A stretch of 37,837 nucleotides of DNA from an uncultured Thiotrichaceae bacterium (lineage in GTDB: Bacteria; Pseudomonadota; Gammaproteobacteria; SZUA-229), in NCBI GenBank assembly GCA_964485705.1, contig CAZALW010000003.1, forward strand, positions 1 to 37,837. Direction: 5' to 3'. The stretch's first letter is position 1, and every line of letters starts with the position of its first letter. Below the pieces are notes generated by a model. It ran no database searches. It was not told where the DNA came from and saw only the letters and a program-made list of their open reading frames with translations. Both the position numbers and the translations under genes were made by a program. Below, piece by piece: positions 3,208 to 34,478 of this stretch.

Positions 3208-3366
3208 GGTGTTACCCTGTTTTGTTTTGTTTAATTTATAATGTATAACTATTTCTAAATAAGAACCTTGCATGAGAAGTGCAATGTTCTTTAAGTATTT
3301 ATTTATGTTTGGCAGCTATATGAGATGAATTGATCTGCCAGGTAGTTTGCCTGGATGTGGCGCAGA

Positions 3367-4461
3367 TTAATCCCCATCAGTAAAAACAATACCCAGTGTG
3401 ACATTAAGGCTGTTTGGAATTTCCCGTTTAAAATTGCCATCAAGTAAGCCGATAGAAATTGTCAGTTCACTGCGGTTTTCAGCAATAGCTGCCTGTTTTG
3501 CCGTGTTTAAATTCGCTTTAACAATGTCTACCTGCTCAGAAAAACCGCCTGATAGCATGTGATTGAAGAAGCTATAGCTATCTTCATTAACACCTTGCAA
3601 CAGGCTTTCTATCGCATCCAGACTTGCCAGGATGTTTTGGTAGAAATAGTCTGCAATTTGCGCGTCTAATATTGCTTCGAGCTTGCGTTTTTTCAGATAG
3701 TCAAGGTGCTGTTGAATGACGGTTATTAATGCTGGCACAGATTCTGCGCCATCTGCTAGTTCGCTATTAACTAAAATAGTTTTAAAAGGTTTGCCAGTGT
3801 CTAGATGGTTGACTAACCAGCCGTGCTCAACCTCACTGGCATGACGTTCCAACAATGCGGTCATGCCAGTTAGGTATTCGCATTTTCTGTTGTTATGTGC
3901 CTTATAATCACTAATAATAAGGCTCAAATCTGTGGCATTGGTACCGCCGCTTTCTTCAAAAATTAACACTTCAAGTGCCAGCATACCGACATGGTTAAAG
4001 TTCAAACTATTAAAATAGTTTTGATCCAGTAGTGTGGCATCGCTTAATCTGGTTGCAAGCCCGGTACGTACCGTCGAAGTGTAGTTTGTGCCGCGTAAAC
4101 GCATGGATTCTATAAAATTAATTTTAGGATCAAATAAATTGTCGTTTAACGGTCCGATGTTAAACATGGCGATTTCATTCCATTGTAAAGAAAGTGTTTT
4201 CCACTGGTTTTGCAATGCGGTCAGGTTATCCCGATTTATGCTGTCAGCCGGGTTACTGCAAAAAGTGTTTACTTTGGTTTGCAGTAATTCACTTTCTGTT
4301 TTAAAAGAAGATATGCCTGGCAGGATGTTTTTCTCAATGGCATTGTTTAAGGCAATATTTAATGAGTCGGCTGAGCCTGGTGCAGGCAGGTCATTTTCAC
4401 GCTGGCTTTCACAGGCACTTATTAGCGTAAAGCAAAGGGCAATTAGAAATAGTTTCGTCAT
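3367..4461 (-). CDS. imelysin-like lipoprotein (short paralogue)
   Basis: It has a lipobox (LISAC). Its size, helical composition and position match the second imelysin-like gene of known imelysin/DUF1111/DUF1513 loci. The family call rests mainly on context. Confidence 0.5.
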   Translation of the reverse strand: MTKLFLIALCFTLISACESQRENDLPAPGSADSLNIALNNAIEKNILPGISSFKTESELLQTKVNTFCSNPADSINRDNLTALQNQWKTLSLQWNEIAMFNIGPLNDNLFDPKINFIESMRLRGTNYTSTVRTGLATRLSDATLLDQNYFNSLNFNHVGMLALEVLIFEESGGTNATDLSLIISDYKAHNNRKCEYLTGMTALLERHASEVEHGWLVNHLDTGKPFKTILVNSELADGAESVPALITVIQQHLDYLKKRKLEAILDAQIADYFYQNILASLDAIESLLQGVNEDSYSFFNHMLSGGFSEQVDIVKANLNTAKQAAIAENRSELTISIGLLDGNFKREIPNSLNVTLGIVFTDGD

Positions 4462-4497
4462 GGTGTAACCGTAAAAGTTATGTTGGTGGTGTTGATT

Positions 4498-5652
4498 TTA
4501 TATAGATGCACTTATCATGTGGTTGTCCCAATAAAAATTGGTGAATCGCAGACGTGCAGATTTATTTTCTTTTAGGCTGAAGGCATCAAGCTGGCGTATT
4601 TCACCCAGTGAATTACTGACAATAAAATGTTTTTGATCACGTGAGACACACAAACCGCAGACATCAACTAATTGGTGGTAGCCGGTAAAGTCACCGCTAT
4701 CCATATTCCAGAAAGCAACTAGATTGCCTTTTGGACTGGTAAAACCGGCAATTCGAGATAAATTGTTAATGGCAGCGCTACCGATGTAATCAAGCATTTT
4801 TTCATTGATGATGGGCGGCTCGTGGAATAACTCAATGGCTTTTCCGGGTTGATGAACACCGGCCAGTGGTACGACTTTTTCATGATTAAGCGCTTCACGC
4901 TGAACCTGCATGGCAAGTGTAACAGTGCCATCATCGGCCACGTCAAGATGGCGAATACTGGCTTTGGCTTCGCTAACTTTAAATGTGTCCAGCTTTTTTG
5001 CAGAGGGTAAATCAATATAAGTCAGGTTGGAACTCATGCTTTTCAGATTGAGTTTTTTACGACCAGTTTCAGGACGAGTGTGTATGCCACCGTTTGCTAC
5101 TACCATGGTTTTACCATCAGGCAATAGTTTAATTTCATGTGGACCAATGCCGTAACTCTCTATTTCATCCAGTTGTTTATAGCTCTGCGTATCGCGAACA
5201 ACAATCTTGCCTTTACCAGTGGTTGAGTCGGCTTCAGCAGTAAACAGGGTTTTGCCATCGTGGCTAAAACAGCCATGGCCTTGCAGGTTTCTGTTTTTTG
5301 CCACCTCAAAACGGTGTTTGATATTACCGGTAAGCAGATCTATTTCCATACCAACTTTTCCTGGTCGGCGTGCGAATAAAATGACTGATTTTTTTTGCAC
5401 AGGATTTTGTGCCAGACCGTGACCTCGAAAACCGGTTGATATTGTTTGTAAAGCAGCTTGCGTAGTGTCATGTTTTTTGTTGATAGTGGTTAAGCTGTAA
5501 CTGTCTGCCTGATTGCCTTGAGCGGAAACAAAATATTCTTTTGTGCTGGTGTCAAATTTTGCTGATGATTTCGCCAGTAATGCAGGCGAAAAACCGGCAG
5601 CAATAACACTGGCTAAGAATTGTCTGCGCTTAATTAATGGTTTTTTCATCAT
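4498..5652 (-). CDS. Tat-exported DUF1513-like periplasmic protein
   Basis: It has a twin-arginine signal (KRRQFLASVIAAG). Its ~380-aa repeat-rich beta-type sequence and its genomic context fit DUF1513. Confidence 0.55.
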   Translation of the reverse strand: MMKKPLIKRRQFLASVIAAGFSPALLAKSSAKFDTSTKEYFVSAQGNQADSYSLTTINKKHDTTQAALQTISTGFRGHGLAQNPVQKKSVILFARRPGKVGMEIDLLTGNIKHRFEVAKNRNLQGHGCFSHDGKTLFTAEADSTTGKGKIVVRDTQSYKQLDEIESYGIGPHEIKLLPDGKTMVVANGGIHTRPETGRKKLNLKSMSSNLTYIDLPSAKKLDTFKVSEAKASIRHLDVADDGTVTLAMQVQREALNHEKVVPLAGVHQPGKAIELFHEPPIINEKMLDYIGSAAINNLSRIAGFTSPKGNLVAFWNMDSGDFTGYHQLVDVCGLCVSRDQKHFIVSNSLGEIRQLDAFSLKENKSARLRFTNFYWDNHMISASI

Positions 5653-5761
5653 ATTTTTTTCAGAGTGATATTTCTATGGTTTTCTACTCTTAGGCTTATT
5701 GCCGATACATTCTTGAGCCATTGAAGAGACTGTGTTGTTCATAAAGGTGCTACTGTTAAGC

Positions 5762-7291
5762 CTACAGCGAGCGCACAAATGCCATTAATGCCAGGCGTTG
5801 TTGTTTATCAAGCCGGGCAAATAAGTTTTTACTGTTTTCAGCTTCTCCGCCATGCCAGAGTATCGCTTCTTCAATACTTCGAGCGCGACCATCATGTAAT
5901 AAATTTTTGCTGCCATTCACTGCCTGACCAAGACCTACGCTCCACAGTGGGGCTGTTCGCCATTCCGAGCCCGTGGCTAAATAGTCAGGGCGACCGTCAG
6001 CAAGTCCTGCACCCATGTCGTGAAGTAATAAGTCGGTATAGGGCCAGACTTCCTGTTCTGAAAGGTGCGGGAATTCTTTATTATTTCCTGTGACATAGCT
6101 GGGTGTGTGGCAACTGTGGCATTTTGTCTGATAAAACAGCTCACGACCTTGCAGCACTGTTGGGTGGTCAGGCTTTCGCCTTTCTGGCACAGCAATTGAC
6201 ATATTAAAATCAACCATCAGGGTCAATAATTGTTCCGATATTTCAAAACCATCTTTATTATTGCCATGAACGCTGGTGTTACACAGCACTTGTTGCTCGG
6301 TACAGGGTTGATCGGGAAACACGGGGTTGCTGATGCCCATGTCACCCTGTAACGCCCCCGCTACCTGAAAACGGACGCTGGCTTTGTTGGCTTTTAAGCC
6401 AAAACGTCCGGCTCGTGGTTGACTGGTTTCAAAATCCCATGTCATATTAACGCGACCGGAAATGCCATCCTGGTTTTCATCTAAAGGATCGGCATTTTTA
6501 TTTATATCAGTCTGCTTTATCATCTCCAATAAGCCGACACCGTGAATGGGCGGGGCATTACGCAGGCTGATTAATGTTTCCGGGTGCATGTCGCCATAAC
6601 CCAGGTTGTGAATGACTATTTCTGGCTTGCGTAAGTTAGCGACATCGCCATCCGGGTAGGTGTAGGTACTCTCCACCCAGTTAATATAAATAAAACCTTC
6701 CGGTGGCACTTCTTTACCATCAATGCCGGTAGGCTTGTCCGCTGATAATTGGTGAGGGTTAAGCTGGTGAGACAGGGCAGTGGACTGTGATTGTAATTGA
6801 TCGCCATATATTGGCTCGGGAATAACGCCATGTATCGGCTCAAAACCGGGAATGCTCAGGCGTAAAAAATGGGTAAAGTTTAATTGCTGGTCTTTTTCTG
6901 GCATGTGACCTCTGCCGCCATTGGCGTGGCATACCAGACAGGTTCTTGTGTTGTAGAGCGGGCCGAGACCATCACGTGCATCGGTGATAGTGGGGGCTTT
7001 TATCCAGGGTTGGTGTGCTAATGCCTTGCCAGCATGAAAATCAGCAATTTTATCTATTGCCAGGTTATTTGCAGGCAGCATTAATGATGGCATAGGTTTA
7101 ATGCTAACCGTGGTATCGCCACCCGGTCTGAGTTCGGCGGCTTTAAATGCAGGTACAGCGTTATTGTCAGGTGCCAATATTATCAGGCTAACGATAATGG
7201 CAGATATGAGACTTAATATTATATATAGTGCTGGCTTGTTCATCGGACTGACTATAGAAAAAGATAATGCGGGAATGAAATGACCCTGCAA
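5762..7291 (-). CDS. di-haem cytochrome c, DUF1111 / thiol-oxidoreductase-like
   Basis: It has two CxxCH motifs (CLVCHANGG and CHSCHTP). An N-terminal membrane anchor or signal is present. An alternative start, MNKPALY, lies at 7243. Confidence 0.7.
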   Translation of the reverse strand: MQGHFIPALSFSIVSPMNKPALYIILSLISAIIVSLIILAPDNNAVPAFKAAELRPGGDTTVSIKPMPSLMLPANNLAIDKIADFHAGKALAHQPWIKAPTITDARDGLGPLYNTRTCLVCHANGGRGHMPEKDQQLNFTHFLRLSIPGFEPIHGVIPEPIYGDQLQSQSTALSHQLNPHQLSADKPTGIDGKEVPPEGFIYINWVESTYTYPDGDVANLRKPEIVIHNLGYGDMHPETLISLRNAPPIHGVGLLEMIKQTDINKNADPLDENQDGISGRVNMTWDFETSQPRAGRFGLKANKASVRFQVAGALQGDMGISNPVFPDQPCTEQQVLCNTSVHGNNKDGFEISEQLLTLMVDFNMSIAVPERRKPDHPTVLQGRELFYQTKCHSCHTPSYVTGNNKEFPHLSEQEVWPYTDLLLHDMGAGLADGRPDYLATGSEWRTAPLWSVGLGQAVNGSKNLLHDGRARSIEEAILWHGGEAENSKNLFARLDKQQRLALMAFVRSL

Positions 7292-7330
7292 GGAAATAAT
7301 TTGGGCAAAAAGACCCTGAAAAGATAAGGT

Positions 7331-7369
7331 TACAAACAGCCAGGGCTAAATTAACCCCGGCTGTTTGTA
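7331..7369 (-). terminator. strong hairpin (terminator/attenuator) between imelysin and DUF1111 genes
   Basis: An 11-bp stem pairs tacaaacagcc with ggctgtttgta, extendable via ggg/ccc. On the minus-strand RNA it is followed by ACCUUAUCUUUUC. It lies 25 nt after the imelysin stop. Confidence 0.4.
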
Positions 7370-7393
7370 GCTAAAAACCTACCTGGCCAGTGT

Positions 7394-8935
7394 TTATGGG
7401 CACACGGCTGTTGGGTCTGTGGTATCACATTCAGTGGCACCGGGATCGTTAACATCAGTGGCTGAACCCACATTAAGGTCAGTTGCTATCTTCGCAATGA
7501 CGATAGACTGAGCATTCAGTGACAGAATGGCATCTCTCATCGGTTTTGCATTGTCGCTGTTTTTATCCATAATCAATACGTCCACTGGAAAGCCAGCACG
7601 TGCTTTTGTGTCAATTGCTTCGTAGTTGATTTTTGTGAGGGCAAAGGCACCACTTACACTGGTTGCCAATAGTGTCTGACCACCTAGATCGACCAGGTAA
7701 TCATCAATGCCGTAACCATCAACCGCTCTGCTTGTATTGTCTGCAGTGCCATTAAGCGTGCTGTCATAACCTGCATAAGTACCGGTATACATATTGGCGA
7801 CACCTTCTGCATTCAACCAGATATCACGATGGGTGTTATCAGAAAAACAGGAGTGTTCATCTTCCTGAGAATTAGCGGACAGTGATATTTGCATACGTTC
7901 GCCAGCCAGTTCACCAACAGACATTGTGCCCATGCCGGTCAAAATTTCCAGAAAACTTTTTTCGGCTGCTGTTAAATTAGCCGGGTTGGTGAAGGTATCG
8001 CGGTAGTTGTCTGCGACACCATCTTGCCAGTGATCGCGTACAAATTTCAGATCGTCGATCAATTTATCAACAGCGACAAGCAGGTAATCATGACGACGTT
8101 GGCAGATAACCGATGATGCAGCCAGGGTGTTTATGCCGCTGGTGCATGTTGCATCAAGCATGAAATCGGTAAAAGGGCGTTTGCCACCCGTTGCCAGGTT
8201 ACTCGCATCATGTGTTTTAACAGCTGAATCACGGTCAGTACCTGAAGTCTCGGTTCCTGAATTATTCAGATCCTGCCCCCAAAGTATAAATTCGATAGCA
8301 TGGTAGCCGGAAATAACGTCATGCTCATCTGCGGCTGTCGCTGAATTATCAAGCAGTGCTGCGTTGATAGTAATACTGGTGTTGCCAATAATGTTGTCTG
8401 CTGAGTTAGCATTTGCATGAGCAGCATCGATGGGGGAAGTAATGCCGGTAACGGCATGTGCAGTAACACCAACTTCTGCATTACCAAAATCCGTGGTGCT
8501 TGCCTGTACATAATCAATTAATGCTTCACCTAGTGGCCATGCATTTAAACTACCTTCCGGGCCATCTTCGGCTTCTGCCGTATCCGGATTATCATCGATG
8601 GGACTATTACGAAAACGATACGCTTCGGTTTGGCCATAAGGTTCACGGGCAATCAACCATGCTGTTTTAGCAACATCCAAAGTAGTTTGCGATGGGTTAG
8701 CTGCCAATGCATCTATTGCAGATTTAAGTGCCTCAGCAGTGCTAACTGAATCAGAATAGCTGGCAAAAGCAATATCTGCATTGGTTTCCAGTACTTTTTT
8801 CAGGTTGGTTAAATCGTGGGTTACGCTGCCGGTGTCTGTTTGTATGCTATCAGAGCTTGAGCCACAACCGGTGAGAATCAGTGATGAAAAGACGGCGACT
8901 GCCATTAGTTTTAGCTTCATTGGTTTTAACTTCAT
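7394..8935 (-). CDS. imelysin / iron-regulated-protein-A-like lipoprotein
   Basis: It has a lipobox (LILTGCGSS). The motif GYHAIEFILWGQD matches the imelysin GxHxxE signature. Confidence 0.7.
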   Translation of the reverse strand: MKLKPMKLKLMAVAVFSSLILTGCGSSSDSIQTDTGSVTHDLTNLKKVLETNADIAFASYSDSVSTAEALKSAIDALAANPSQTTLDVAKTAWLIAREPYGQTEAYRFRNSPIDDNPDTAEAEDGPEGSLNAWPLGEALIDYVQASTTDFGNAEVGVTAHAVTGITSPIDAAHANANSADNIIGNTSITINAALLDNSATAADEHDVISGYHAIEFILWGQDLNNSGTETSGTDRDSAVKTHDASNLATGGKRPFTDFMLDATCTSGINTLAASSVICQRRHDYLLVAVDKLIDDLKFVRDHWQDGVADNYRDTFTNPANLTAAEKSFLEILTGMGTMSVGELAGERMQISLSANSQEDEHSCFSDNTHRDIWLNAEGVANMYTGTYAGYDSTLNGTADNTSRAVDGYGIDDYLVDLGGQTLLATSVSGAFALTKINYEAIDTKARAGFPVDVLIMDKNSDNAKPMRDAILSLNAQSIVIAKIATDLNVGSATDVNDPGATECDTTDPTAVCP

Positions 8936-9008
8936 TGTTTTTAGTCCTTCAGAACATGTTTTACGTTTAATTTATAGTCAGGATTGATTTAGAAGGGTTA
9001 GCTTATAT

Positions 9009-9027
9009 GAGAATGAGAACGATTGTC
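9009..9027. promoter_or_regulatory. candidate Fur box in the divergent promoter region
   Basis: GAGAATGAGAACGATTGTC matches 14 of 19 positions of GATAATGATAATCATTATC. It lies between the imelysin start (8935) and the peroxidase start (9162). Confidence 0.35.
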
Positions 9028-9161
9028 AATAAGATTATTATTACTATTAATTGATATTTGTCAATTACATTTAGTTGAGTTTATGCAATATTTAGCTTGC
9101 TGTGTATAAATGCCATTAGGGGTATTTGCGATAGAGAAAATACAAATGAGAGTTTATTATT

Positions 9162-10376
9162 ATGTTCAAAAAATCAGTTTTAATCGGCTTTATTGTTATG
9201 CTTTCTGCCTGCGGAAATTCATCAGACCCCGCTTTTTCAACTAAAGCTGAATTGGGTGATGCGCTGTTTCATGACAAGAACCTGTCATTGGAGCGCACTC
9301 AGTCCTGCGCAACCTGTCACCAACCGGAACATGCTTTTATTGACAGTCGTCTGGATGCTGCTGGCAAAATTCCAGCCGTATCACTCGGTGATGATGGTGT
9401 TTCCCTGGGTGATAGAAATACACCGACTGCCTCTTATGCCATGTTCTCACCTGATTTTCATATTGGCACGCGCCAGCGTTTTCAAACAGAGCAGAAGGCA
9501 CATAGAAATTTTACAGGCGCAATGGGTGGTCAGTTTCTGGATGGTAGAGAGCTTGATTTAAAAGGCCAGGCTGGTGGTCCACCGCTTAATCCAGTGGAAA
9601 TGAATATGCCGGATAAAACCAGCGTAGTTGCCAGGCTACTGGAAAATTTAGATTATATTGATGCCTTTAATCGCTTATTCGGCGACACAATTTTTGATGA
9701 TGTCGATGCGGCTTATGCTGCCATGGCAGAAAGCATCGCCAGTTTTGAAAAAACCGAACAGTTTGCCCCGTTTGATTCTAAATTTGATCGTTCATTGACC
9801 GGTGAATATACAATGACAACGATAGAAAACACCGGAAAATCATTGTTCTTCTCACAGTTTTCAAACTGCGCTATTTGTCACCAGCTACACGATCAATTTG
9901 ATTTTGCAAACAGGACTAAAGAAACTTTCACTGGTTACGAGTACCACAATATTGGCGTGCCACAAAATCCGGTTGTAGCCATACTAAATGCAAACGGATT
10001 TGATTCTGGTCTGGAAAATAATACCGGAGAGTCAACTGACCGGGGTAAATTTAAAACACCCACCTTGCGTAATGTAGCGGTTACTGAACCCTACATGCAT
10101 AACGGAGTTTTTCGTGACCTGGCTACGGTGGTTGAATTTTATAATCATATTGCGAATCGCAGTGATACAACACATGCCATTAACCCTGAAACCAGTGTTG
10201 AATGGAATCCGCCAGAAGTGGATATTAATATAGCCGATGCGGAGCTTGCCTCTGGTAATCGATTTGTTACAACAGCAACCTTCAATGAAAATGAAGCCAT
10301 GGTCTGCTTCCTCAGAACATTAACGGATAAAAAGTATGAGCATTTGATTGAAGGAAAAGGAATCAATTGTGACTAA
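9162..10376 (+). CDS. di-haem cytochrome c peroxidase (CCP/MauG family) lipoprotein
   Basis: It has a lipobox (MLSACG). Two haem c sites are present (CATCHQPEH and CAICHQ). The motifs PTLRNV and EPYMHNG are typical of bacterial CCPs. Confidence 0.8.
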   Translation: MFKKSVLIGFIVMLSACGNSSDPAFSTKAELGDALFHDKNLSLERTQSCATCHQPEHAFIDSRLDAAGKIPAVSLGDDGVSLGDRNTPTASYAMFSPDFHIGTRQRFQTEQKAHRNFTGAMGGQFLDGRELDLKGQAGGPPLNPVEMNMPDKTSVVARLLENLDYIDAFNRLFGDTIFDDVDAAYAAMAESIASFEKTEQFAPFDSKFDRSLTGEYTMTTIENTGKSLFFSQFSNCAICHQLHDQFDFANRTKETFTGYEYHNIGVPQNPVVAILNANGFDSGLENNTGESTDRGKFKTPTLRNVAVTEPYMHNGVFRDLATVVEFYNHIANRSDTTHAINPETSVEWNPPEVDINIADAELASGNRFVTTATFNENEAMVCFLRTLTDKKYEHLIEGKGINCD

Positions 10377-10416: not shown

Positions 10417-10580
10417 GAATGGCTGAGTTCGACACTTAGCAGACATTAAAAACTAAACCCCCTCAATCCCCCTTTGAAAAAAGGGGGAGGTAAAAAGGCT
10501 TTAGTCCCTCCCTTTTTGAAAGGGAGGTTAGGAGGGTTTGTTTTTTCTGTGTGTCCGCTTATGACAGAACTCAGTCATTC
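10417..10580. repeat. MITE/REP-like element with two internal GC hairpins
   Basis: The outer arms are gaatggctgagttc (10417..10430) and gaactcagtcattc (10567..10580), matching at 13 of 14. One inner hairpin is 10467..10475 with 10480..10488 (tcccccttt-gaaa-aaaggggga). The other is 10507..10515 with 10519..10527. Confidence 0.6.
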
Positions 10581-10793: not shown

Positions 10794-10928
10794 TAAATAT
10801 AATATATTCACATTAATGCCGGTTATTTGACGGTGCAATAAAGTGGATACTAGGTTAAAGATGCTAGAGAAACTGCCGATAAGATTATAAGCGATAAATA
10901 AGCAGGGGAAAAAAGGTGGAACCGTAAT

Positions 10929-11810
10929 ATGGACAATATAGCATTACAGAAAGTAACTAGTGCATCAACGCACGAACAAGCAGAGTTAACGACGCATGAA
11001 TTAAAGCGAGTTTCTATATTTATAGGTAAAGAAGTAGGCATACAGCTTCCTGATTCAAAACATAAACTGGTCGAAAGTCGTTTGCGTCGCCGCTTAAAGG
11101 TACTGGGTTTTAGTGATTTTAAATCCTATCTTGATCACACCCTGGAAAGTATTGATGGTGAGCTGGAAAAATTGCAGCTTATAGATGTTATTACCACCAA
11201 TAAGACAAATTTTTACCGTGAGTCAGATCATTTCGATTATTTACAGCAATCAGCTGTTCCTGAGCTGGAAAAAATGAAAACCAATGAAGGTCGGCGAGAT
11301 CTTAATATATGGAGCGCAGGATGCTCAACAGGTGAAGAGGCATATACATTAAGCATTATATTAAATGAGATTGCTGCAAAGCAGAAAAACTTCCAGTTTA
11401 ATATTCTGGCTACAGATATTTCGCATAGCTGTTTGAACACAGGCAGTCGTGGTGTTTATACAGAAAATCAGGTTGCAGTTATTCCACTGGAATTGAGAAA
11501 AAAATATTTATTACGCAGCAAAAACACTGCTGATGGGTTGGTGCAAATGGGGCAGAAACTCAGGCAAAATATTCGATTTAAAAGCCTGAATCTAATGGAT
11601 AAGCAATTTTCATTAAGTGAAAAAATGGACGTTATCTTTTGCAGAAATGTAATGATTTATTTCAATAATCAGTTACGTGAAGAGTTAGTTGCCAGATTTG
11701 AAAACCAACTGATTAATGGAGGCTATTTATTTGTTGGTCATTCAGAATCCCTGAATGGCATTAAAAATTCACTTAAACAAGTTGCACCTATGGTTTATCG
11801 AAAAGTTTAA
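10929..11810 (+). CDS. cheR: chemotaxis protein methyltransferase CheR
   Basis: TNKTNFYRESDHFDYL and the SAM-binding IWSAGCSTGEEAYTLSIIL are present, followed by VIFCRNVMIYFN. Confidence 0.85.
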   Translation: MDNIALQKVTSASTHEQAELTTHELKRVSIFIGKEVGIQLPDSKHKLVESRLRRRLKVLGFSDFKSYLDHTLESIDGELEKLQLIDVITTNKTNFYRESDHFDYLQQSAVPELEKMKTNEGRRDLNIWSAGCSTGEEAYTLSIILNEIAAKQKNFQFNILATDISHSCLNTGSRGVYTENQVAVIPLELRKKYLLRSKNTADGLVQMGQKLRQNIRFKSLNLMDKQFSLSEKMDVIFCRNVMIYFNNQLREELVARFENQLINGGYLFVGHSESLNGIKNSLKQVAPMVYRKV

Positions 11811-11914
11811 CCTTTAAAAAATGAGTTGAGTCCTGGTAGGTTCGATAAATTTGCTAGGGTTTAACGCAGATTTAACTATATCAATGAATTATGTATCGAT
11901 AGTACAGAGTTGAA

Positions 11915-13036
11915 ATGGACGTGAATATGCAAGCAGAAAATAAAAAAATGATTAAGGTGATGCTGGTTGATGACTCTGCCGTAGTACGCCAGACCTTAAC
12001 GCAGGTTTTAGATTCAGACCCTGAAATTGAAGTCATTGCAGCATGTCAGGATCCGTTTTTTGCAGCAAAAGAACTGCGTAACGTTTGCCCGGATGTGATG
12101 TTGCTGGATGTGGAAATGCCAAGGATGGATGGCATTACTTTCTTAAAAAAAATCATGTCACAAAACCCTTTGCCCGTTATCATTTGCTCTACTTTGGTCG
12201 GAACTGGCTCAGAAACAACAGTTAAAGCGCTTGAATATGGTGCAATTGATATCATTCAAAAACCAACCATCGGCACGAAAAAATTCCTGCAGGAAGCAAC
12301 CGTTCAGTTAACTGATGCGGTAAAAGCGGCTGCAAAAGTAAATGTCAGACAACTTAAAAGAAACATACAACAAGTTGCGCCTAAATTAACTGCAGATGCT
12401 GTATTGCCGAGTATTTCCGGTAGAGCCATGTCAAAAACGACTGAAAAAATAATTGTTATCGGTGCTTCCACTGGCGGTACTGAAGCAGTACGAAAGGTGC
12501 TGGAAGTCATGCCGCAGGATGCTCCCGGTATTGTTGTTGTACAGCACATGCCACAGGGTTTTACCGCTTCATTTGCAAACAGATTAAATGAACTTTGTAA
12601 AATTAATGTAAAAGAGGCCTCTAATGGTGATTCAGTATTACGTGGTCATGCATTGATAGCACCCGGCAATTACCATACCTTAGTAAAAAGAAGTGGTGCT
12701 CGATATTATGTTGAAGTACGCGAAGGACCACTGGTTTCACGTCATCGCCCGTCTGTTGATGTGTTATTTCGATCCACTGCACGCTATGCAGGTAAAAATG
12801 CCGTAGCAGCCATTCTTACCGGCATGGGCGATGATGGTGCAGCCGGAATGAAAGAAATGCATGAAGCGGGGTCATACACTATTGCACAGGATGAAAAAAC
12901 AAGTGTCGTCTACGGTATGCCGGCAGTTGCTGTTAAACAGGGCGGTGTTGACAGGGTTTTACCTTTAAATTTGATTGCACAAGCTTTGATCGATGATGAA
13001 TCGTTTCAGATGCAACATAAAGCATTAGCGAATTAA
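11915..13036 (+). CDS. cheB: protein-glutamate methylesterase/deamidase CheB (REC + esterase)
   Basis: The REC domain has VDDS and [11 protein letters not shown]. The esterase domain has [15 protein letters not shown] and GMGDDGA. Confidence 0.9.
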
Positions 13037-13043
13037 ATGGTGA

Positions 13044-14981
13044 TTGCTTATGTTTAACATGAATTATGAGCCGGAGATACAGGAAGTCGTTTTATCGGGT
13101 AAATCATTAAATGTGCTGGTTGTGGATGACAGTAAAGTTATACGCTCAGCGATAAGAGAGATACTTGAAATAGGCAATCTTCAGGTAACAGAAGCATGTG
13201 ACGGCATAGAAGCACTGGAATTTATTAAGGAATCCATTAAAGAATCAAATAATAATTTACCTGATCTTATCCTGCTTGATGTTGTTATGCCTAGAATGGA
13301 TGGACTCTCAGTTTTACAAACACTTCGGCAAACTTATTCAAAAATACAGTTACCCATTATTCTGGTTACTTCACAGGGTTCGGCGCGCGAAATGGTGCAG
13401 GCACTGGATTTAGGTGCAAATGATTATGTTACCAAGCCGATAGACTTTGATGTTTTGTGGGCGAGGTTAACTAATCAGTTAATGCAAAAACAGGCTGCGG
13501 AATTCCTGTGTTCTGCACAGCTTAGTCTGGAAAAACAAATTAAACAAAGAACGGCAGAGCTGAAGTCAATCAATCAGAAATTAGAAAAAGAAATGCAAGT
13601 AAGACTGCTTGCAGAAGAAAGATTAAAAAAACAGGCAAGTTATGATGAATTAACAGGTCTGCCCAACCGAAGCCTTGCTGCTGATCGCCTGCAGCAAACA
13701 CTGGTAAAAGCGAAACGACATAAGCTAAAACCATGTGTTGCTTTTCTTGATCTTGATAACTTTAAATATATAAATGATACTTTCGGCCATGCTGCAGGCG
13801 ATGATTTACTCAAAGAAGCCGCAAAAAGATTAACCGAGTGTGCCAGACGAAGTGATACTGTTGCACGTTTAGGTGGTGATGAGTTTTTACTTATTCTTGA
13901 TGATGACAAAACCAACTATCCTCCAGAGTCAGGTATCAGGCACGTCGCGATACGCATAATTGAAAGTTTTTCAAAACCTTTTGTCATTGAAGGACAGGAA
14001 TTAAATATTACCCCAAGCATCGGTTTTGCCGTTTATCCAAAAGATGGTGAAGACAGTAATATATTAATGCGCCATGCCGACGCAGCGATGTATCGTTCAA
14101 AAAATGATGGTAAAAACACCTATTGTTTTTATTCACCTGAAATGACGGTACAGGCAAAATTGCGCATGAATGTTGAGTCACAACTTCGCCATGCACTTGA
14201 ACGTAATGAATTTTATATCGAGTATCAACCGATTGTTAATTTAAAAAATGGTGGAATTGTAAAAGCAGAAGCTCTATTACGGTGGGACTGTGATGCGCTA
14301 GGCATGATAACACCCGATTACTTTATTCCTATTGCTGAAGAAACGGCAATGATTTTGCCAATTGGTGACTGGGTAATTAAACAAGCATGCAAACAGGTGA
14401 AAAACTGGCGTGATTCCGGCTGGAAAAATATTTGTATTACCATTAATGTTTCAGCTCGTCAGTTTAAGTCTGATTCGTCTTTGGTGAAAACGGTTCGTGA
14501 TGCACTTGAAAATAATAATTTAGCATCCGACGCAATACAGCTCGAATTAACTGAAGGTATATTATTGGAAGAAAGCAGTGGTTCTGCTGAAATAATGAAG
14601 CAAATAGAAAACATGGGTATTAAATTACTTATTGATGATTTTGGTACCGGTTATGCCTCATTGTCTTATTTGCAGCGTTACAATTTTGATTCATTAAAAA
14701 TTGATTGTAGTTACATAGCTAATGTTTTACACAGTAAACAGGATGCAAAGCTGGTAAAAGCGGTTATTGCGATGGCAAATAGTCTAGGGTTGTCAGTCAT
14801 ATCCGAAGGCGTTGAGACCAAAGGACAACTGGAATTTTTGTTGGCTTCTGATTGTGAATTTATGCAGGGATATTATTTTAGTAAACCTGTTTCTGCAGAT
14901 GAATTTGTCATATTACTGAATAAAACTAACCGGACACAATGTAACGGAAAATCACTTGAATTGATTCAAGTAGGATTATAG
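13044..14981 (+). CDS. response regulator with GGDEF and EAL domains
   Basis: The REC domain has VVDDS, LLDVVMPRMDG and TKP. The cyclase part has RRSD-TVARL-GGDEF. The EAL half has EALLRW and DDFGTGYASLSYL. The track start is TTG at 13044; an ATG at 13050 is an alternative. Confidence 0.9.
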   Translation: MLMFNMNYEPEIQEVVLSGKSLNVLVVDDSKVIRSAIREILEIGNLQVTEACDGIEALEFIKESIKESNNNLPDLILLDVVMPRMDGLSVLQTLRQTYSKIQLPIILVTSQGSAREMVQALDLGANDYVTKPIDFDVLWARLTNQLMQKQAAEFLCSAQLSLEKQIKQRTAELKSINQKLEKEMQVRLLAEERLKKQASYDELTGLPNRSLAADRLQQTLVKAKRHKLKPCVAFLDLDNFKYINDTFGHAAGDDLLKEAAKRLTECARRSDTVARLGGDEFLLILDDDKTNYPPESGIRHVAIRIIESFSKPFVIEGQELNITPSIGFAVYPKDGEDSNILMRHADAAMYRSKNDGKNTYCFYSPEMTVQAKLRMNVESQLRHALERNEFYIEYQPIVNLKNGGIVKAEALLRWDCDALGMITPDYFIPIAEETAMILPIGDWVIKQACKQVKNWRDSGWKNICITINVSARQFKSDSSLVKTVRDALENNNLASDAIQLELTEGILLEESSGSAEIMKQIENMGIKLLIDDFGTGYASLSYLQRYNFDSLKIDCSYIANVLHSKQDAKLVKAVIAMANSLGLSVISEGVETKGQLEFLLASDCEFMQGYYFSKPVSADEFVILLNKTNRTQCNGKSLELIQVGL

Positions 14982-14994
14982 GAGCGGCCTGATA

Positions 14995-15528
14995 TTGAAA
15001 CATGCAGATAAGAAAGTTTTTCTTCACCCTGGTGAATTTTGTTTTTTGAACAATGCTGCGCATGTGCATACCATACTGGGTTCATGTATTTCCATTACCT
15101 TGTGGCACCCAGAATTATGTATTGGAGGAATGTGTCATTTTACGCTGCCTAAACATCCCCATCTTAAGCATCAATTGAAAAAAAATGAAACAGCTAAACT
15201 TGATGGTCGCTACGCTGACGATGTGATGAAAATGTTTAAGCAGGAAGCGACAAAATATGGCACAAAATTGATGGAGTATGAGGCAAAAATATTCGGTGGT
15301 GGAAATATGATGAAATCCGAAGGTCAGAACATCGAAGACTCTATTGGTACAAAAAACGCTGCAGCGGCAATGCAATTGTTAATGGCAGAAAATATTGCTA
15401 TTCAAGTGGCACATGTGGGTGAATTTGGCCACCGACGTATTGTTTTTGATGTCAATTCAGGTGATGTATGGGTTCGTCATACTGAAGCGAGTGATATTAA
15501 AACGGGAATTATCAATGGAAAAGTCTAA
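14995..15528 (+). CDS. cheD: chemoreceptor glutamine deamidase CheD
   Basis: HTILGSCISITLWHP....GGMCHFTLP is the CheD signature. The start is TTG, with GGAG 10 nt upstream. Confidence 0.8.
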   Translation: MKHADKKVFLHPGEFCFLNNAAHVHTILGSCISITLWHPELCIGGMCHFTLPKHPHLKHQLKKNETAKLDGRYADDVMKMFKQEATKYGTKLMEYEAKIFGGGNMMKSEGQNIEDSIGTKNAAAAMQLLMAENIAIQVAHVGEFGHRRIVFDVNSGDVWVRHTEASDIKTGIINGKV

Positions 15529-15618: not shown

Positions 15619-15665
15619 GATTTTTTTTCATTCCCACGCTCCTGCGTGGGAACGAGAAAAAAATC
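15619..15665. repeat. REP-like hairpin
   Basis: The core is a 9-bp stem, ttcccacgc (15631..15639) with gcgtgggaa (15644..15652), and a 4-nt loop. Complementary T8/A7 runs flank it. Nearby ttagttcgtaaa also occurs at ~1626 in the other repeat thicket. Confidence 0.6.
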
Positions 15666-15849
15666 TCTGTGCTTTCTGTTCATCCTTTAGTTCGTAAACA
15701 GCTCGTCCCTTTACTACTTCTGGCGAACTGTTTTTTTGCTTTAATCAAATTATTTCAATCATCTTCTAAGGATTTTCCACGACCTGCCGATAAGCTTATT
15801 GTGAAGCTATTTTAATTAATAGCCTGGTTTAATGTTTTGGAGGCGTGTT

Positions 15850-16218
15850 ATGTCAGTAAGTCAAGAAGTGTCTAACGATGGGAAAAAAGTACTTATCAAT
15901 ATTTCAGGACGATTCGATTATAAGGTTTCACAGGAGTTTCGAGATACATATCGACAAGTTCCCGGTCAGGAAGATGTTGCTTATTATGTGAATCTAAGTG
16001 AAGCCACTTACATGGATAGCTCGGCACTTGGCATGTTATTGTTGTTACGTGAACATGCAAAATGTCGTGGTGGTTCGGTGTTTATTGATCGCCCTGGTGA
16101 ACAGGTGAATAGTATATTAAAAGTGGCTAATTTCGAGCAACTTTTTACTATTAACTATACAGACCCTGCGGTAGTTGGCGCAAAAGTCGTTGGCATGAAA
16201 TCAGGCACTGGTGCATGA
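15850..16218 (+). CDS. STAS-domain anti-sigma-factor antagonist (SpoIIAA/RsbV/HsbA-like)
   Basis: It is ~120 aa and has the phospho-serine motif context YMDSSALGMLLLL. I chose the ATG at 15850 because GGAGG lies 7 nt upstream. Confidence 0.8.
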   Translation: MSVSQEVSNDGKKVLINISGRFDYKVSQEFRDTYRQVPGQEDVAYYVNLSEATYMDSSALGMLLLLREHAKCRGGSVFIDRPGEQVNSILKVANFEQLFTINYTDPAVVGAKVVGMKSGTGA

Positions 16219-17447
16219 GTCTAAGCTTGATGAAAACGGTGACGGATAACAAAATTTTTAAAAGTCATGGCTGTGTACTTGTCGTTAGTCATTCAGGTAC
16301 TACTAAAACTAGTGTTGATAAAAAACTATTTCAGCTGGGTTTTGACGTTGTGTTAGCGAGTGAAGGTAGAGCAGCTTTAAGCCTGTTTGATACAAATCGT
16401 ATAGACTTTATTTTGATTGAAGCAGACCACATTGATGTTTCAATTAGTGAATTTGTTAATACATTACGTGCTTGTGCTTATGGTACTTTTATTCCGGTCA
16501 TTGTTCTACTTTCTGCTGAAGATGAAGAACTTCTGTCTGAATGTATGCTGGCAGGGTGTGATGACTTTCTGTATAAGCCATTCACAGTAACAGCACTGAA
16601 AGCCAGATTTGCATCATTAAAACAGACTCGTGAATTAAAGGAGTTATATAAAAGTTCAATAGATGAGCAGTTAGTAGCCAGGCAAATATTAGCTTATGCT
16701 TTATCTGAAAGAAATATTCAATTTGAAGAAATTCAGCTTTTGAGTAAGTCTAAAGCAATATTTAGTGGCGATCTTTTTTTAACAGCAAAACGCCCTGATG
16801 GCGGCTTGTATATTCTACTGGCTGATTTTACCGGTCACGGACTTTCTGCCGCTATTGGCGCATTACCGGTTGCCGATATATTTAGTGTAATGACAAATAA
16901 AGGCTTCGAGTTAGAAGATATACTGGAAAATATAAATAATAAGTTACACACCTTATTGCCAGTAAGCATGTTTATGGCGTGTAGTGCATTAAAAATACAT
17001 GCAGATTTAAAACATGCGAGTGTGTGGAACGGAGGCATGCCAGATATTTATCTAAGAAATAGCCAAAATGGTGAGATTAAAAATAAAATAAAGGCCAGCC
17101 ATATACCACTTGGTATCGACAAAACAACAAGCGAAAATTTTAAGCTAAATACGATATCTATAAACCAAAATGATCAGTTTATTATTTATACAGATGGCTT
17201 AACCGAAGCTGAAAACGCCAATGGTGAAATGTTTGGCTATCAGCATTTGAATCAATGTCTTGACAACTGCCGCGGAAAAGAATTTCTTTTTGCAAAGATA
17301 GTTGCAGAATTTACCGAATTTTGTGGTGATATCGAGCCAAATGATGATGTAACCCTTGCCTGTATTCCATGTGCCGAAAACATGACTGAAGTAAAAGAAT
17401 CTGATACTGTAAATAACATACAAGTTGTGAGTAATCGTGATGATTAG
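16215..17447 (+). CDS. PP2C (SpoIIE/RsbU-type) serine phosphatase with degenerate N-terminal receiver
   Basis: The PP2C motifs are FSGDLFL, LLADFTGHGLSAAIG, YTDGLTEA and NDDVTL. The receiver-like N-terminus has SH in place of the DD acidic pair. Its start overlaps the STAS stop in an ATGA. Confidence 0.85.
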   Translation: MSLSLMKTVTDNKIFKSHGCVLVVSHSGTTKTSVDKKLFQLGFDVVLASEGRAALSLFDTNRIDFILIEADHIDVSISEFVNTLRACAYGTFIPVIVLLSAEDEELLSECMLAGCDDFLYKPFTVTALKARFASLKQTRELKELYKSSIDEQLVARQILAYALSERNIQFEEIQLLSKSKAIFSGDLFLTAKRPDGGLYILLADFTGHGLSAAIGALPVADIFSVMTNKGFELEDILENINNKLHTLLPVSMFMACSALKIHADLKHASVWNGGMPDIYLRNSQNGEIKNKIKASHIPLGIDKTTSENFKLNTISINQNDQFIIYTDGLTEAENANGEMFGYQHLNQCLDNCRGKEFLFAKIVAEFTEFCGDIEPNDDVTLACIPCAENMTEVKESDTVNNIQVVSNRDD

Positions 17448-17465
17448 TTGTATATCGAGGTTTTC

Positions 17466-18386
17466 ATGACCGTATCTAATACAACGGACAATCCAACGGC
17501 ATCAGTGACAGTATTAGTAGTCGATGATGAGATATTTAACCTTGATCTCATCACCGATTATTTAAATGAGTTTGAGATAAATGTTGTGTGTGTAGAAAGT
17601 GGTGAGGCGGCATTAACTATTTTGCAGGAATTTCCATATCGTTTTAGTGCTATCCTGCTAGATCGTATGATGCCTGGTATGGATGGTATAGAAGTACTGA
17701 AACGCATTAAAAATGATGAAACGATAAATCGCCTGCCTGTCATTATGCAAACAGCCAGTACCGGCAAGAAAAACATGTTAGAAGGTTTGAATGCGGGTGC
17801 TTATTATTATCTGTCTAAACCTTATGACCAGGCAACACTTATTGCTATAGTAAAAACGGCAATACGTGATTATCAACATTATGTACGAATACAGAAAAAC
17901 CTTAAGCAATCGGTACAAACATTAAAAATGATGGATAAAGGCATTTTTAATTTTCAGTCACTAGAGGAGGGTAGAAGCCTTGCAACGTTATTGGCAAATG
18001 CTTGCCCTGATCCGGAGCGAGTTGTTTTAGGTTTGACAGAATTAATAATCAATGCCGTTGAGCATGGAAATTTGGGTATCACTTATAAAGAAAAGTCCAT
18101 ATTAAATGCAGCTGGTGGTTGGGAGAGTGAAGTTGTAAAAAGGTTGGCTTCTCCAGCCCATAAGGATAAATATGTGACAGTCGAATTTTCTCGTAGAGAT
18201 AATGAAATATCATTTATTATTATCGATCAGGGAAAAGGATTTGACTGGAGAAAGTTCATGGAAATAAGCCCGGATCGAGCATTCGATAGTCATGGTCGTG
18301 GTATTGCACTGGCAAATTCGATTAGCTTTAAAAATATTGAATATCAGGAAAATGGTAATAAAGTCTGTGTAACAGTGCCTTTATAA
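17466..18386 (+). CDS. response receiver fused to RsbW/SpoIIAB-type HATPase serine kinase
   Basis: The receiver is canonical (VVDDE, LLDRMMPGMDG, MQTA, SKP). The kinase half has an N-box (ELIINAVEHGN), G1 (DQGKGFD) and G2 (HGRGIALAN). I chose the ATG at 17466 because it has a GAGG upstream. Confidence 0.8.
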   Translation: MTVSNTTDNPTASVTVLVVDDEIFNLDLITDYLNEFEINVVCVESGEAALTILQEFPYRFSAILLDRMMPGMDGIEVLKRIKNDETINRLPVIMQTASTGKKNMLEGLNAGAYYYLSKPYDQATLIAIVKTAIRDYQHYVRIQKNLKQSVQTLKMMDKGIFNFQSLEEGRSLATLLANACPDPERVVLGLTELIINAVEHGNLGITYKEKSILNAAGGWESEVVKRLASPAHKDKYVTVEFSRRDNEISFIIIDQGKGFDWRKFMEISPDRAFDSHGRGIALANSISFKNIEYQENGNKVCVTVPL

Positions 18387-18396: not shown

Positions 18397-20109
18397 ATGA
18401 AAACATCACCAGAAAATGAAATAAAAAAGATATACCAAAAATCTGTGCGCCTGTTAAATGATAAGCAGGCACGTTTGATGGATATGCAGCAAGTATTAAA
18501 GAAAGCTGTTATCAGGCTATCGCTTGCATCACGTAGTGACAATGATCAGGTTAATAATGTGCTATCTGATATCAATAGTTCAGTTGCTGATCATATTGAT
18601 ATAAATAGTCTAAATAAACATTTAGATGATTTATTTTTACTTATTAATCATGCAGATTTTCGAACTGACGAAACTAAAAAAACGGCATTGTATTCATATT
18701 TAAAAAAATATATTGAGGATAATAAAAACTCACCTCTATCTGATGAGGTCATTTTAAAAGTAAAAACATTTGTTGCTTCAAAACTGCCGGATGACGAGCT
18801 TTCAGCAGAGCTATTAAAGTCATTATCTAAGATGGATAAGGATTTATCAAACAGCAAACAACAATACAGTGATAGCATAAATTTATTTATAAAAGATATT
18901 TCCGAGTGTACTGGTTTTACCTTTGATAGAGCAGACATGGAAATATCTGAAATCATGCAGGATTTAGCCATTGAGCTTGCTAAATATATTTACTCAGAAA
19001 ATAACGATAATAAAACAAGTCAGAATTCAAGTATTGATGATACCGCTGATAATAGCGATAAGAATAATAACATAAGCCACATTCTAAATGAAATAGTTAA
19101 CCAGCTAGCATTGCCGGCATCATCAAAAAGGGACAAATTCCATGCGGTAAAAGGACTTAATGGCCCTGGTGAAAAAAACTGGAAAGATATTATCCACACA
19201 TTAGTACAGTTGGTTAATCAAAGTATTCATTCCGTTCAGCAGGAAAAAAAGACGCTTGAAGCTTACCTAATTAAAATTAGTGCACAGTTGGCAGATATAG
19301 AGTCATTTATGCATTCAATGTCCCGTGATACTGGCGAAGCAACATCCATATCATTGGCTTTAACAGATTCTGTAGAAGCAGGAGTATCAAGTATTGAAAA
19401 AACCATAACACAGTCAACGGATTTAACTGTGCTTAAACGCGATATCGCAACTAACCTGAAAGACATTCGCAAACATGTTGTCGATTATAATCATGCAGAA
19501 AAAATCAGGAATGACATATCCATACAAACGTATTCAAAAATGATAAATGAACTTGTCGATTCACAAAAAGAATCAGATGAGTTACAGTCACAATTACATG
19601 AAAGTAAGACACAACTTTTAAGTGATCCGTTGACAGGTATTGCAAATAGACTGGCTTATGATGAAAGAATTAAGGTAGAGTTCAACCGATGGAAGCGTAC
19701 AAATGCTCCTTTGTGTATTGCTATATGGGATGTTGACCACTTTAAAAAAATTAATGACAAATATGGTCATGCTGTAGGTGATCGCGTATTAAAATTGTTT
19801 GCAGATATAATTAATTCAAAAATCAGAAAGACAGACCTGTTCGCAAGAATAGGTGGTGAAGAATTTGTATTAGTCATGCCAGATACCTCTCTAGAAAAAG
19901 CAATGGCTTTAAATGAGAAATTACGGCTAATGCTCGAAGAGTGCAATTTTCATTATGATGGGCAACAATGCCAAATCACCTCATCAGTAGGAATAGCTGA
20001 ATTTCGACGAGGTGATAATGCCAATATAGCTTTAGACAAAGCAGATCAAGCTCTTTATCAAAGTAAAAATGAAGGCAGAAACCGGTGTACTACTTTTAAA
20101 GATGTTTAA
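18397..20109 (+). CDS. diguanylate cyclase with ~400-aa coiled-coil/low-complexity N-terminal region
   Basis: The C-terminal GGDEF domain has RKTD (an I-site-like RxxD) 5 aa before GGEEF. The N-terminus is helical, has no TM segment, and contains an N/D/S-rich linker. Confidence 0.85.
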   Translation: MKTSPENEIKKIYQKSVRLLNDKQARLMDMQQVLKKAVIRLSLASRSDNDQVNNVLSDINSSVADHIDINSLNKHLDDLFLLINHADFRTDETKKTALYSYLKKYIEDNKNSPLSDEVILKVKTFVASKLPDDELSAELLKSLSKMDKDLSNSKQQYSDSINLFIKDISECTGFTFDRADMEISEIMQDLAIELAKYIYSENNDNKTSQNSSIDDTADNSDKNNNISHILNEIVNQLALPASSKRDKFHAVKGLNGPGEKNWKDIIHTLVQLVNQSIHSVQQEKKTLEAYLIKISAQLADIESFMHSMSRDTGEATSISLALTDSVEAGVSSIEKTITQSTDLTVLKRDIATNLKDIRKHVVDYNHAEKIRNDISIQTYSKMINELVDSQKESDELQSQLHESKTQLLSDPLTGIANRLAYDERIKVEFNRWKRTNAPLCIAIWDVDHFKKINDKYGHAVGDRVLKLFADIINSKIRKTDLFARIGGEEFVLVMPDTSLEKAMALNEKLRLMLEECNFHYDGQQCQITSSVGIAEFRRGDNANIALDKADQALYQSKNEGRNRCTTFKDV

Positions 20110-31106: not shown

Positions 31107-31168
31107 TATTCATTAATTGCTCATAATAGATATGAGCCAAGTATAGCTAAATAACCCGCAAATACAAC

Positions 31169-34476: not shown

Positions 34477-34478
34477 AT

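Follow-up and report, generated by a model that had tools for sequence, protein, structure and literature searches.

A cheR-cheB-cheD trio enclosing a REC-GGDEF-EAL gene in an uncultured Thiotrichaceae bacterium, probably the relocated tail of an F7-like chemosensory operon

The Wsp system of the alternative cellular function (ACF) class is encoded by one operon with a receptor, two CheW-like proteins, a hybrid of CheA and a receiver (REC) domain, CheR, CheB and the REC-GGDEF output protein WspR. In the split F6 chemosensory sets of Pseudomonas and Vibrio, cheV-cheR is situated beside flgA-flgM-flgN, away from cheA-cheB-cheW. For the F7 class, a 'stage 1' cluster has been described which ends, on its 3' side, with STAS genes and a serine phosphatase and is always accompanied by F6, and no biological output is known for the ancestral F7 systems (Ortega et al. 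2020, PMC7184735). The CrsR/CrsA partner switch is encoded in the che1 cluster of S. oneidensis (Fortier et al. 2022, PMC9855816). In the HptB-HsbR-HsbA-HsbD pathway a STAS protein switches between FlgM and a diguanylate cyclase, and the Hpt/Hsb locus of P. aeruginosa adjoins cheR-like (PA3348), cheW-like (PA3349) and flgM genes (Valentini et al. 2016, PMC5085249). The locus analyzed here lies in a 37.8-kb stretch of contig CAZALW010000003.1 from an uncultured Thiotrichaceae bacterium, and this whole stretch is called the window. It contains the four-gene module cheR-cheB-RGE-cheD, where RGE denotes a REC-GGDEF-EAL protein predicted to act on cyclic di-GMP (c-di-GMP). A literature search for this gene order found no description of it.

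The CheR-CheB-CheD trio of the window is probably the relocated tail of a chemotaxis-type operon, the core of which is retained elsewhere in relatives, with the adaptation enzymes supplied in trans; a probability of about 0.7 is given to this reading. The trio is taken as the relocated 3' tail of a standard chemosensory operon because it is orthologous to the operon tail on one JGI contig of 206,419 nt (L173/L174; L numbers denote loci of relatives), where CheR, CheB and CheD are 75, 79 and 76% identical to those of the window. The first part of this contig reads flhF-flhG-fliA-cheY-cheZ-cheA-parC-x-cheW. It is followed by mcp(short)-cheY-STAS-cheA-cheW-mcp(PAS/HAMP)-mcp-cheV-cheR-cheB-cheD-HDOD-x-RR-motA-motB-sigma54 activator-hybrid HK, where mcp encodes a methyl-accepting chemotaxis protein (MCP), RR is a response regulator and HK a histidine kinase. 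This is the undivided form of the operon, with no RGE between cheB and cheD, and its final genes, the sigma54 activator and the hybrid kinase, are those which precede HK-Hpt-RGE-STAS in L083, L002 and L088. CheB homologues at 69-73% identity (L165, L166, L168, L169 and L171) were all found within complete che clusters of the order (mcp)-cheY-STAS-cheA-mcp-cheW-cheR-cheB-(cheD), of which L171 is a complete cluster without RGE.

Kinase cores of relatives were sought with CheA from one of the complete clusters, and a split arrangement was observed. The loci L170 and L167 belong to the same ENA record, contig_41949 (128,660 nt). L167 holds the four-gene module, and L170 shows F6 genes and then mcp-cheY-STAS-cheA-(803 aa)-cheW-mcp-cheW-...-mcp-cheW-mcp, with no cheR, cheB or cheD. 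Module and kinase core are about 51 kb apart on this contig in the same orientation, with at least fliK, flgA, flgM, flgN and cheV between them. The same core, ending in cheW-HDOD-RR-motAB-PilZ and again without cheR, cheB and cheD, was found in L172. The contig of L172 and the contig carrying the RGE (71%) and CheB (78%) orthologues are both 55,535 nt long, so that co-location is inferred there, not proven. The F6 set of L170, L172 and L173 consists of fliA-cheY-cheZ-cheA-parC-(cheW-like)-cheW and has no cheB, and in these loci the F7-like gene is perhaps the sole cheB in the vicinity of the flagellar genes. An initial annotation of the window had presented the module as an adaptation-only system and named two findings that would speak against this, one being that the genome has a matching cheA-cheW-mcp set at another place, the other that the locus derives from a standard che operon. 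Both were encountered in relatives, the former on contig_41949 and the latter in L173/L174. The apparent anomaly is thus removed, as the orphan methylation system would be a split chemosensory operon with its core retained elsewhere in relatives. The arrangement is like that of the split F6 sets (locus description in PMC5085249) in that adaptation enzymes are encoded away from kinase and receptors, would act in trans, and would belong to the sigma-28 or late flagellar class. It is unlike them in that cheB and cheD are detached along with cheR and enclose a c-di-GMP enzyme.

The window itself contains no chemosensory core. As the initial annotation had stated, CheA, CheW and MCP were absent: no Pfam match to them was found among the 29 larger open reading frames (ORFs) scanned, and CheA, CheW, MCP, CheY and STAS queries from the complete clusters of four relatives gave no tblastn match at E <= 1e-3 in six frames. 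Relics of cheA, cheW or mcp were likewise not detected by tblastn anywhere in the window, including the 552-nt gap in front of cheR.

To understand the class of the parent operon, pairwise identities with E. coli proteins were compared. In the kinase core, CheA of E. coli (class F7) is 44% identical to the STAS-class CheA of L173 versus 34% to the F6 CheA, and E. coli CheW is 34% identical to the STAS-class CheW versus 30% to the F6 CheW, while CheY and CheZ of E. coli resemble the F6 proteins more (CheY 64%). This pattern is the one described for F7 evolution (PMC7184735). F7 gene content, comprising STAS, cheY, cheA, cheW, Aer2-like and McpA-like receptors, cheR, cheD, cheB, a further STAS and a serine phosphatase, is all present among the relatives L170, L172 and L173/L174, next to F6 genes, and of these the window itself has cheR, cheB and cheD as well as STAS and the phosphatase. 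Like the ancestral F7 clusters (V. cholerae cluster III, P. aeruginosa Che2, S. oneidensis Che1), the clusters of the relatives combine a mcpA-like short receptor, cheY, STAS, cheA, cheW, PAS/HAMP (Aer2-like) receptors, cheR, cheB and cheD, coexist with F6 and are associated with a STAS/serine-phosphatase partner switch. They differ in the order cheR-cheB-cheD instead of cheR-cheD-cheB, in the position of STAS between cheY and cheA, and in having the partner-switch phosphatase and kinase as two separate REC proteins; in the lineage of the window, moreover, the R/B/D tail is detached and a REC-GGDEF-EAL gene stands between cheB and cheD.

On gene content and pairwise identity the parent operon therefore appears F7-like in content. 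Several points weigh against a relocated tail of such an operon. In a tree of CheR+CheB+CheD the contiguous operon of L174 is nested inside the RGE-wrapped clade with 87% and 100% bootstrap; it groups with the clade of the window (87%), excluding L167 (100%). This nesting means that the arrangement changed more than once and that there was no single clean relocation; repeated relocation, reversion, or duplication with reciprocal loss are possible histories. The 11 kb upstream and the 22 kb downstream of the module contain no flagellar, cheA, cheW or mcp gene. The kinase and receptor core was seen in relatives and not in the window, the inventory having covered the 37.8 kb of the window. Both sigma-28 promoters discussed below are sequence matches only, and the REC domain of RGE has no particular affinity to CheY, CheB or another class.

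The genes of the module are intact and closely spaced on the plus strand, as the initial annotation had described. All four were assigned by Pfam (Table 1), and CheB additionally scored 437 bits, above cutoff, for the NCBIfam CheB subfamily. The intergenic gaps are 104 nt between cheR and cheB, 7 nt between cheB and RGE and 13 nt between RGE and cheD. The motifs quoted by that annotation were all found in the sequence. CheR carries IWSAGCSTGEE, and its motifs for binding of S-adenosylmethionine (SAM) are conserved in orthologues. CheB carries GASTGG, VVQHMP and GMGDDG with its Asp, Ser, His and Asp motifs intact, and CheD carries GSCI and GGMCHF with conserved Cys and His motifs. Thus the family domains and catalytic residues of CheR, CheB and CheD are all present, with motifs conserved across orthologues. 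RGE shows RRSD followed after 5 aa by GGDEF, along with EALLR, N, ELTE, DDFGTG, LKID, EGVE and MQGY, which represent the EAL catalytic set. The phospho-acceptor Asp is present in the REC domains of both CheB and RGE, and that of RGE is kept in the orthologue alignment. The I-site arrangement RxxD-5aa-GGDEF was intact in 15 of 15 RGE orthologues and the EAL catalytic motifs in most of them. Both halves of RGE therefore look catalytically competent, as had been suggested. The likely start of RGE is the ATG at 13050, two codons after the TTG at 13044, where the orthologues begin with MFNMNYEPE. The database gene call for this protein (P0020) is 505 aa long, starts 140 codons inside the ORF and drops the REC domain.

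Selection on the module was analyzed as the ratio of nonsynonymous to synonymous substitution rates (dN/dS) between the window and L081 and L001, at an unsaturated dS of 0.56-0.90. The values were 0.15-0.16 for cheR, 0.06-0.08 for cheB, 0.09-0.12 for RGE and 0.05-0.07 for cheD. All four genes are under strong purifying selection. Because of these ratios and the intact catalytic motifs, the CheR-CheB-CheD trio is read as functional in the lineage of the window.

The proteins of the window were mapped onto 27 related loci. The closest reference genome is a metagenome-assembled genome labelled uncultured Thiotrichaceae (RGE 83%), the sequence of the window is present in two seawater-metagenome runs, and RGE has >120 orthologue clusters at >= 60% identity in metagenomes. 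Whether the order cheR-cheB-RGE-cheD recurs had been raised by the initial annotation. It does so, as part of the block cheR-cheB-RGE-cheD-STAS-PP2C-RsbW-(DGC), DGC being a diguanylate cyclase, in L081/L082 (GCA_964421315.1, RGE 89%), L001 (83%), and L003, L087, L088, L090 and L091 (~71-73%), while the flanks outside this eight-gene block differ in the window, L081 and L088. In L167 (RGE 59%, CheB 75%) the four-gene module occurs without the partner-switch operon, beside fliK, flgA, flgM, flgN and cheV. Other, equally close RGE orthologues are without cheR, cheB and cheD, namely those of L002 (81%), L084 (82%), L086 (74%), L083 (66%) and L004 (65%). In these relatives RGE is positioned directly after a HisKA-HATPase-REC-Hpt hybrid kinase and directly before STAS. 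Recurrence with and without the neighbours indicates that the four-gene module is a recurring, selected unit and that RGE with the partner switch is a second one, found both with and without the first.

Relics of the adaptation genes were observed beside RGE in three loci, whose RGE is 80-82% identical to that of the window. L092 retains a CheB fragment (aa 212-262) just 5' of RGE, L085 a CheB C-terminus with an in-frame stop, and L084, between RGE and STAS, CheD fragments disrupted by stops and frameshifts. Losses of cheR, cheB and cheD in sister lineages occurred by decay to pseudogenes, and this presence/absence polymorphism with relics is a natural experiment on when adaptation enzymes are dispensable. 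The DGCcoil cyclase is also variable, with shorter versions in L002 and L083 and a 149-aa coil protein in its place in L088, and among the compared loci the presence of cheRBD did not track its length or presence. In L088 (RGE ~72% clade) a PD-(D/E)XK_3 ORF is inserted between cheR and cheB (8409-8861), and the 149-aa replacement (15736-16185), which has no GGDEF, is followed by a convergent HDOD gene and a HisKA-HATPase-REC-GGDEF-EAL gene. In L084, L002 and L085, which lost cheRBD, the Thr/Ser position of the RGE receiver reads IAS or IAP versus LVTS elsewhere, and the phospho-acceptor Asp is followed by Ala where the others have Val. These substitutions may reflect changed receiver signalling.

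The initial annotation had left two ways for the enzymes to act, on a distant Che array in trans or on a non-MCP substrate nearby. The former is supported by comparison with relatives, given the cores of contig_41949 and L172. In the latter, CheR, CheB and CheD would modify the DGC-coil cyclase, the STAS protein or RGE, forming a self-contained circuit of c-di-GMP control by covalent modification within or next to the module. The missing MCP, CheA and CheW, the block order kept against varying flanks and the long coiled-coil N-terminus of the cyclase would fit such a circuit. It is nevertheless very unlikely, as the orthologues of the trio, at 75-79% identity, form the tail of a canonical MCP-containing operon; in a relative, the same module shares its contig with an MCP-CheA-CheW core that has no adaptation enzymes of its own; and no MCP-like (MCPsignal) domain was found by Pfam in any neighbour of the module. 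Nor does any neighbour co-vary with the trio, since L167 has the module without the partner-switch/cyclase operon, L084, L086 and L083 keep RGE and the partner-switch/cyclase genes without cheRBD, and L088 keeps cheRBD with no cyclase. The persistence of RGE and the partner-switch operon where cheB and cheD decay speaks against this substrate as well. The same decay in L084, L085 and L092, together with the lack of the che core in the window, could instead hint that the trio has outlived the lost core as a non-functional remnant, only RGE and the partner switch being still at work. For the window this is the least probable of the explanations weighed here, with dN/dS of 0.05-0.16 for cheR, cheB and cheD, catalytic residues and reading frames all intact, and sigma-28 elements kept while the spacer between them varies.

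A further explanation accepts the chemosensory origin and makes the module the output and adaptation arm of a dedicated c-di-GMP pathway of Wsp-like logic, in which a F7-like CheA phosphorylates RGE and the trio serves only that array and not F6. RGE is indeed translationally packed between cheB and cheD across a clade with 59-100% RGE identity, the complete cluster of L165 has a REC protein 43% identical to the RGE receiver between cheR and cheB, and the output of ancestral F7 systems is, as said, unknown (PMC7184735). The explanation is unlikely all the same. RGE directly follows the HisKA-HATPase-REC-Hpt kinase in relatives without cheRBD, and a REC-Hpt or HK-Hpt gene precedes cheR in L088 and L003; these Hpt genes before RGE or cheR point to a Hpt phosphorelay as donor. 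The F6 clusters of relatives are without cheB, so that the trio probably serves F6 receptors too, and the contiguous operon of L174 has no RGE. Of the comparison with Wsp made in the initial annotation, a functional likeness remains, a chemosensory-type pathway being coupled genetically to a receiver-domain c-di-GMP enzyme and a CheR/CheB pair. The likeness does not extend to class. Several features of a Wsp-type operon are missing, as the window has no MCP, CheW or CheA, its output protein adds EAL to the GGDEF that is the only output domain of WspR, and it has CheD, which Wsp lacks along with CheY and STAS. The nearest relatives of the CheB, CheR and CheD of the window are not in Wsp-type clusters; their clusters carry CheY, STAS and a classical CheA and are F7-like.

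Under the preferred reading of a relocated tail, cheR-cheB-RGE-cheD is one tightly packed unit, predicted to be co-transcribed, behind a sigma-28 (FliA) promoter match. CheR, CheB and CheD would act in trans on the MCPs of a F7-like array encoded elsewhere on the chromosome, as judged from relatives, in which the F7-like core (mcpA-like mcp, cheY, STAS, cheA, cheW and PAS/HAMP mcp) adjoins the F6 genes. The trio would probably also serve the F6 array because the F6 sets of relatives have no cheB. CheB would be phosphorylated by a CheA, and RGE would be made together with the adaptation enzymes. The RGE receiver may be phosphorylated by CheA or by the HisKA-HATPase-REC-Hpt phosphorelay that precedes RGE in relatives, and this input could lead to c-di-GMP synthesis or, more likely in motile cells, to hydrolysis. 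Similarity of the REC domain did not identify the phosphodonor; the best match was at 43% (an uncharacterised REC protein of L165) and the others at 26-38%. The L165 protein has 275 aa and a faint HisKA match and is encoded between cheR and cheB (7753-8580). BifA of P. putida is a FliA-controlled GGDEF-EAL phosphodiesterase (PMC5300878). RGE would be like BifA as a GGDEF-EAL enzyme behind a sigma-28-type promoter in motile cells, and a phosphodiesterase role may be inferred for it by analogy; BifA differs in having no receiver domain and in not being embedded in che genes.

The locus is unusual for the c-di-GMP enzyme embedded in it, not for an orphan methylation system. What is new is that a receiver-controlled GGDEF-EAL enzyme is embedded between cheB and cheD repeatedly and under selection, in an operon which, like the adjoining partner-switch/cyclase operon, stands behind a sigma-28 promoter match. 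It is proposed tentatively, as a rather doubtful extension, that a F7-like system acquired a dedicated c-di-GMP output from CheA to RGE, made in stoichiometric amounts with CheB/CheD from a single sigma-28 transcript, whereby the state of receptors and adaptation would be read as c-di-GMP turnover and passed to the STAS partner switch, maybe with feedback on FlgM/sigma-28. This offers a testable hypothesis of how F7-like systems couple to c-di-GMP and the motile-sessile switch, and a lead to the output of the ancestral F7 systems.

The partner-switch operon that the initial annotation had placed downstream of the module was confirmed by Pfam as STAS, REC-PP2C, REC-HATPase_c_2 and DGCcoil-GGDEF genes. 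Through it the same phospho-signals may reach a partner switch and a second source of c-di-GMP, by analogy with HptB/HsbR/HsbA/HsbD and CrsR/CrsA. Orthology aside, the STAS operon would work like the HptB-HsbR-HsbA-HsbD pathway. Counting in the relatives, both would share a Hpt phosphorelay feeding a REC-PP2C/kinase regulator, a STAS partner-switch protein, a diguanylate cyclase, and the position next to a cheR gene and flagellar genes with a sigma-28/FlgM link. They are unlike in that HsbR is one polypeptide (REC-PP2C-HATPase) and its counterparts here are two proteins, HsbD has six transmembrane helices in place of a coiled-coil N-terminus, the Hsb locus has no REC-GGDEF-EAL, cheB or cheD, and the Hpt kinase is not in the window and is present in relatives only.

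Promoters were searched with the sigma-28 consensus TAAAGTTT-n11-GCCGATAA (PMC2859248), of which 13 positions (TAAAG and GCCGATAA) were scored. Two matches were found, one before cheR and one before STAS (Table 1), and GCCGATAA occurs twice in the 37.8 kb, only in these two matches and both times on the coding strand. The match before cheR is kept in L081 (13/13), L001, L088, L090 and L003, where both elements are retained and the spacer is variable. The match before STAS is kept in L081, L001, L084 (twice), L085, L002, L004, L083 and L086. Since the motif also stands before flgM and cheV in L167 and before cheV in L174, and these are canonical sigma-28 targets, it was read as the FliA promoter of the lineage. 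Both operons, cheR-cheD and the STAS operon, are predicted to belong to the late flagellar regulon, and such membership implies a flagellated, chemotactic host with MCP arrays. In L084 the sigma-28-like promoter before STAS is duplicated about 180 nt apart (3158-3184 and 3339-3365); the stretch of decayed cheD fragments overlaps with the first copy and ends shortly before the second.

Sigma-54 promoters were also searched because a sigma-54 activator is conserved in relatives. They were not enriched, with 26 matches where 27.6 were expected, and the promoter regions of the module held a single match, at 10778, with two mismatches. A sigma-70 promoter scan gave fewer matches than shuffles did. 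A hairpin which is unique in the window lies, with its flanking runs, in the region 15621-15665 between cheD and the STAS operon. Its run order, T before and A after, is the reverse of a canonical bidirectional terminator, and it is not a canonical intrinsic terminator on either strand. A terminator scan did not call it and showed nothing convincing between cheD and STAS.

Table 1. Genes and sequence elements in and around the cheR-cheB-RGE-cheD module
Feature	Position	Strand	Description
Di-haem (cytochrome c) peroxidase gene	9162-10376	+	CCP_MauG; upstream of the 552-nt gap
Sigma-28 (FliA)-type promoter match	10856..10882	+	TAAAG-N14-GCCGATAA; sequence TAAAGATGCTAGAGAAACTGCCGATAA; 13/13, exact spacing; ends 47 nt before cheR ATG
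cheR	10929..11810	+	293 aa; protein-glutamate O-methyltransferase; Pfam CheR_N + CheR (E 9e-62)
cheB	11915..13036	+	373 aa; REC-methylesterase/deamidase; Pfam REC + CheB_methylest (1e-66)
RGE	13044..14981	+	645 aa from TTG; REC-GGDEF-EAL, putative c-di-GMP enzyme; Pfam 8e-28, 3e-48, 9e-70
cheD	14995..15528	+	177 aa; chemoreceptor glutamine deamidase; Pfam CheD (8e-24)
Hairpin	15631..15652		TTCCCACGC-TCCT-GCGTGGGAA; perfect 9-bp stem between cheD and the STAS operon; T8 before, A7 after
Second sigma-28-type promoter match	15767..15793	+	TAAGG-N14-GCCGATAA; 12/13; ends 39 nt before STAS ATG
STAS	15832..16218	+	128 aa; anti-sigma-factor-antagonist-like; DSS motif; Pfam STAS/STAS_2; syntenic in all orthologous loci
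REC-PP2C	16215..17447	+	SpoIIE-type serine phosphatase response regulator; Pfam and synteny
REC-HATPase_c_2	17448..18386	+	RsbW-type serine kinase/anti-sigma-like response regulator; Pfam and synteny
DGCcoil-GGDEF	18397..20109	+	570 aa; diguanylate cyclase; Pfam GGDEF 1e-44, DGCcoil 1e-5

The 552 nt directly 5' of cheR contain no credible ORF. The initial annotation had given about 550 bp of non-coding DNA and a peroxidase gene at this place, and length and gene are borne out; the stretch is not featureless, as it holds the sigma-28 promoter match. Shared synteny with L168, where a CCP_MauG gene stands before a complete che cluster, was considered and dropped, the peroxidases being only 32% identical. 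The remaining window comprises an imelysin/DUF1513/di-haem oxidoreductase cluster, an aa3-type cytochrome oxidase operon with assembly genes, and an integrase/ParA/DUF2857 island. The first of these, at 2053-10376, consists of minus-strand genes for imelysin, DUF1513, a DHOR di-haem oxidoreductase, a second imelysin and a 406-aa protein without Pfam match, followed by the plus-strand CCP_MauG gene, and resembles an iron-uptake or peroxide-handling locus. At 29856-37000 a tyrosine-recombinase integrase (29856-31106, minus strand), ParA (31267-32139), a 572-aa protein without Pfam match, DUF2857 (33850-34476) and further ORFs were observed. The region directly adjoins the cytochrome oxidase operon and resembles the border of a genomic island or integrative element; a tRNA gene was not found in the window. 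Just 3' of the peroxidase gene, at 10455-10545, there are two G/C-rich palindromes, CCCCCTTTGAAAAAAGGGGGAGG and CCCTCCCTTTTTGAAAGGGAGG, which could be repetitive extragenic palindrome (REP)-like elements or a terminator.

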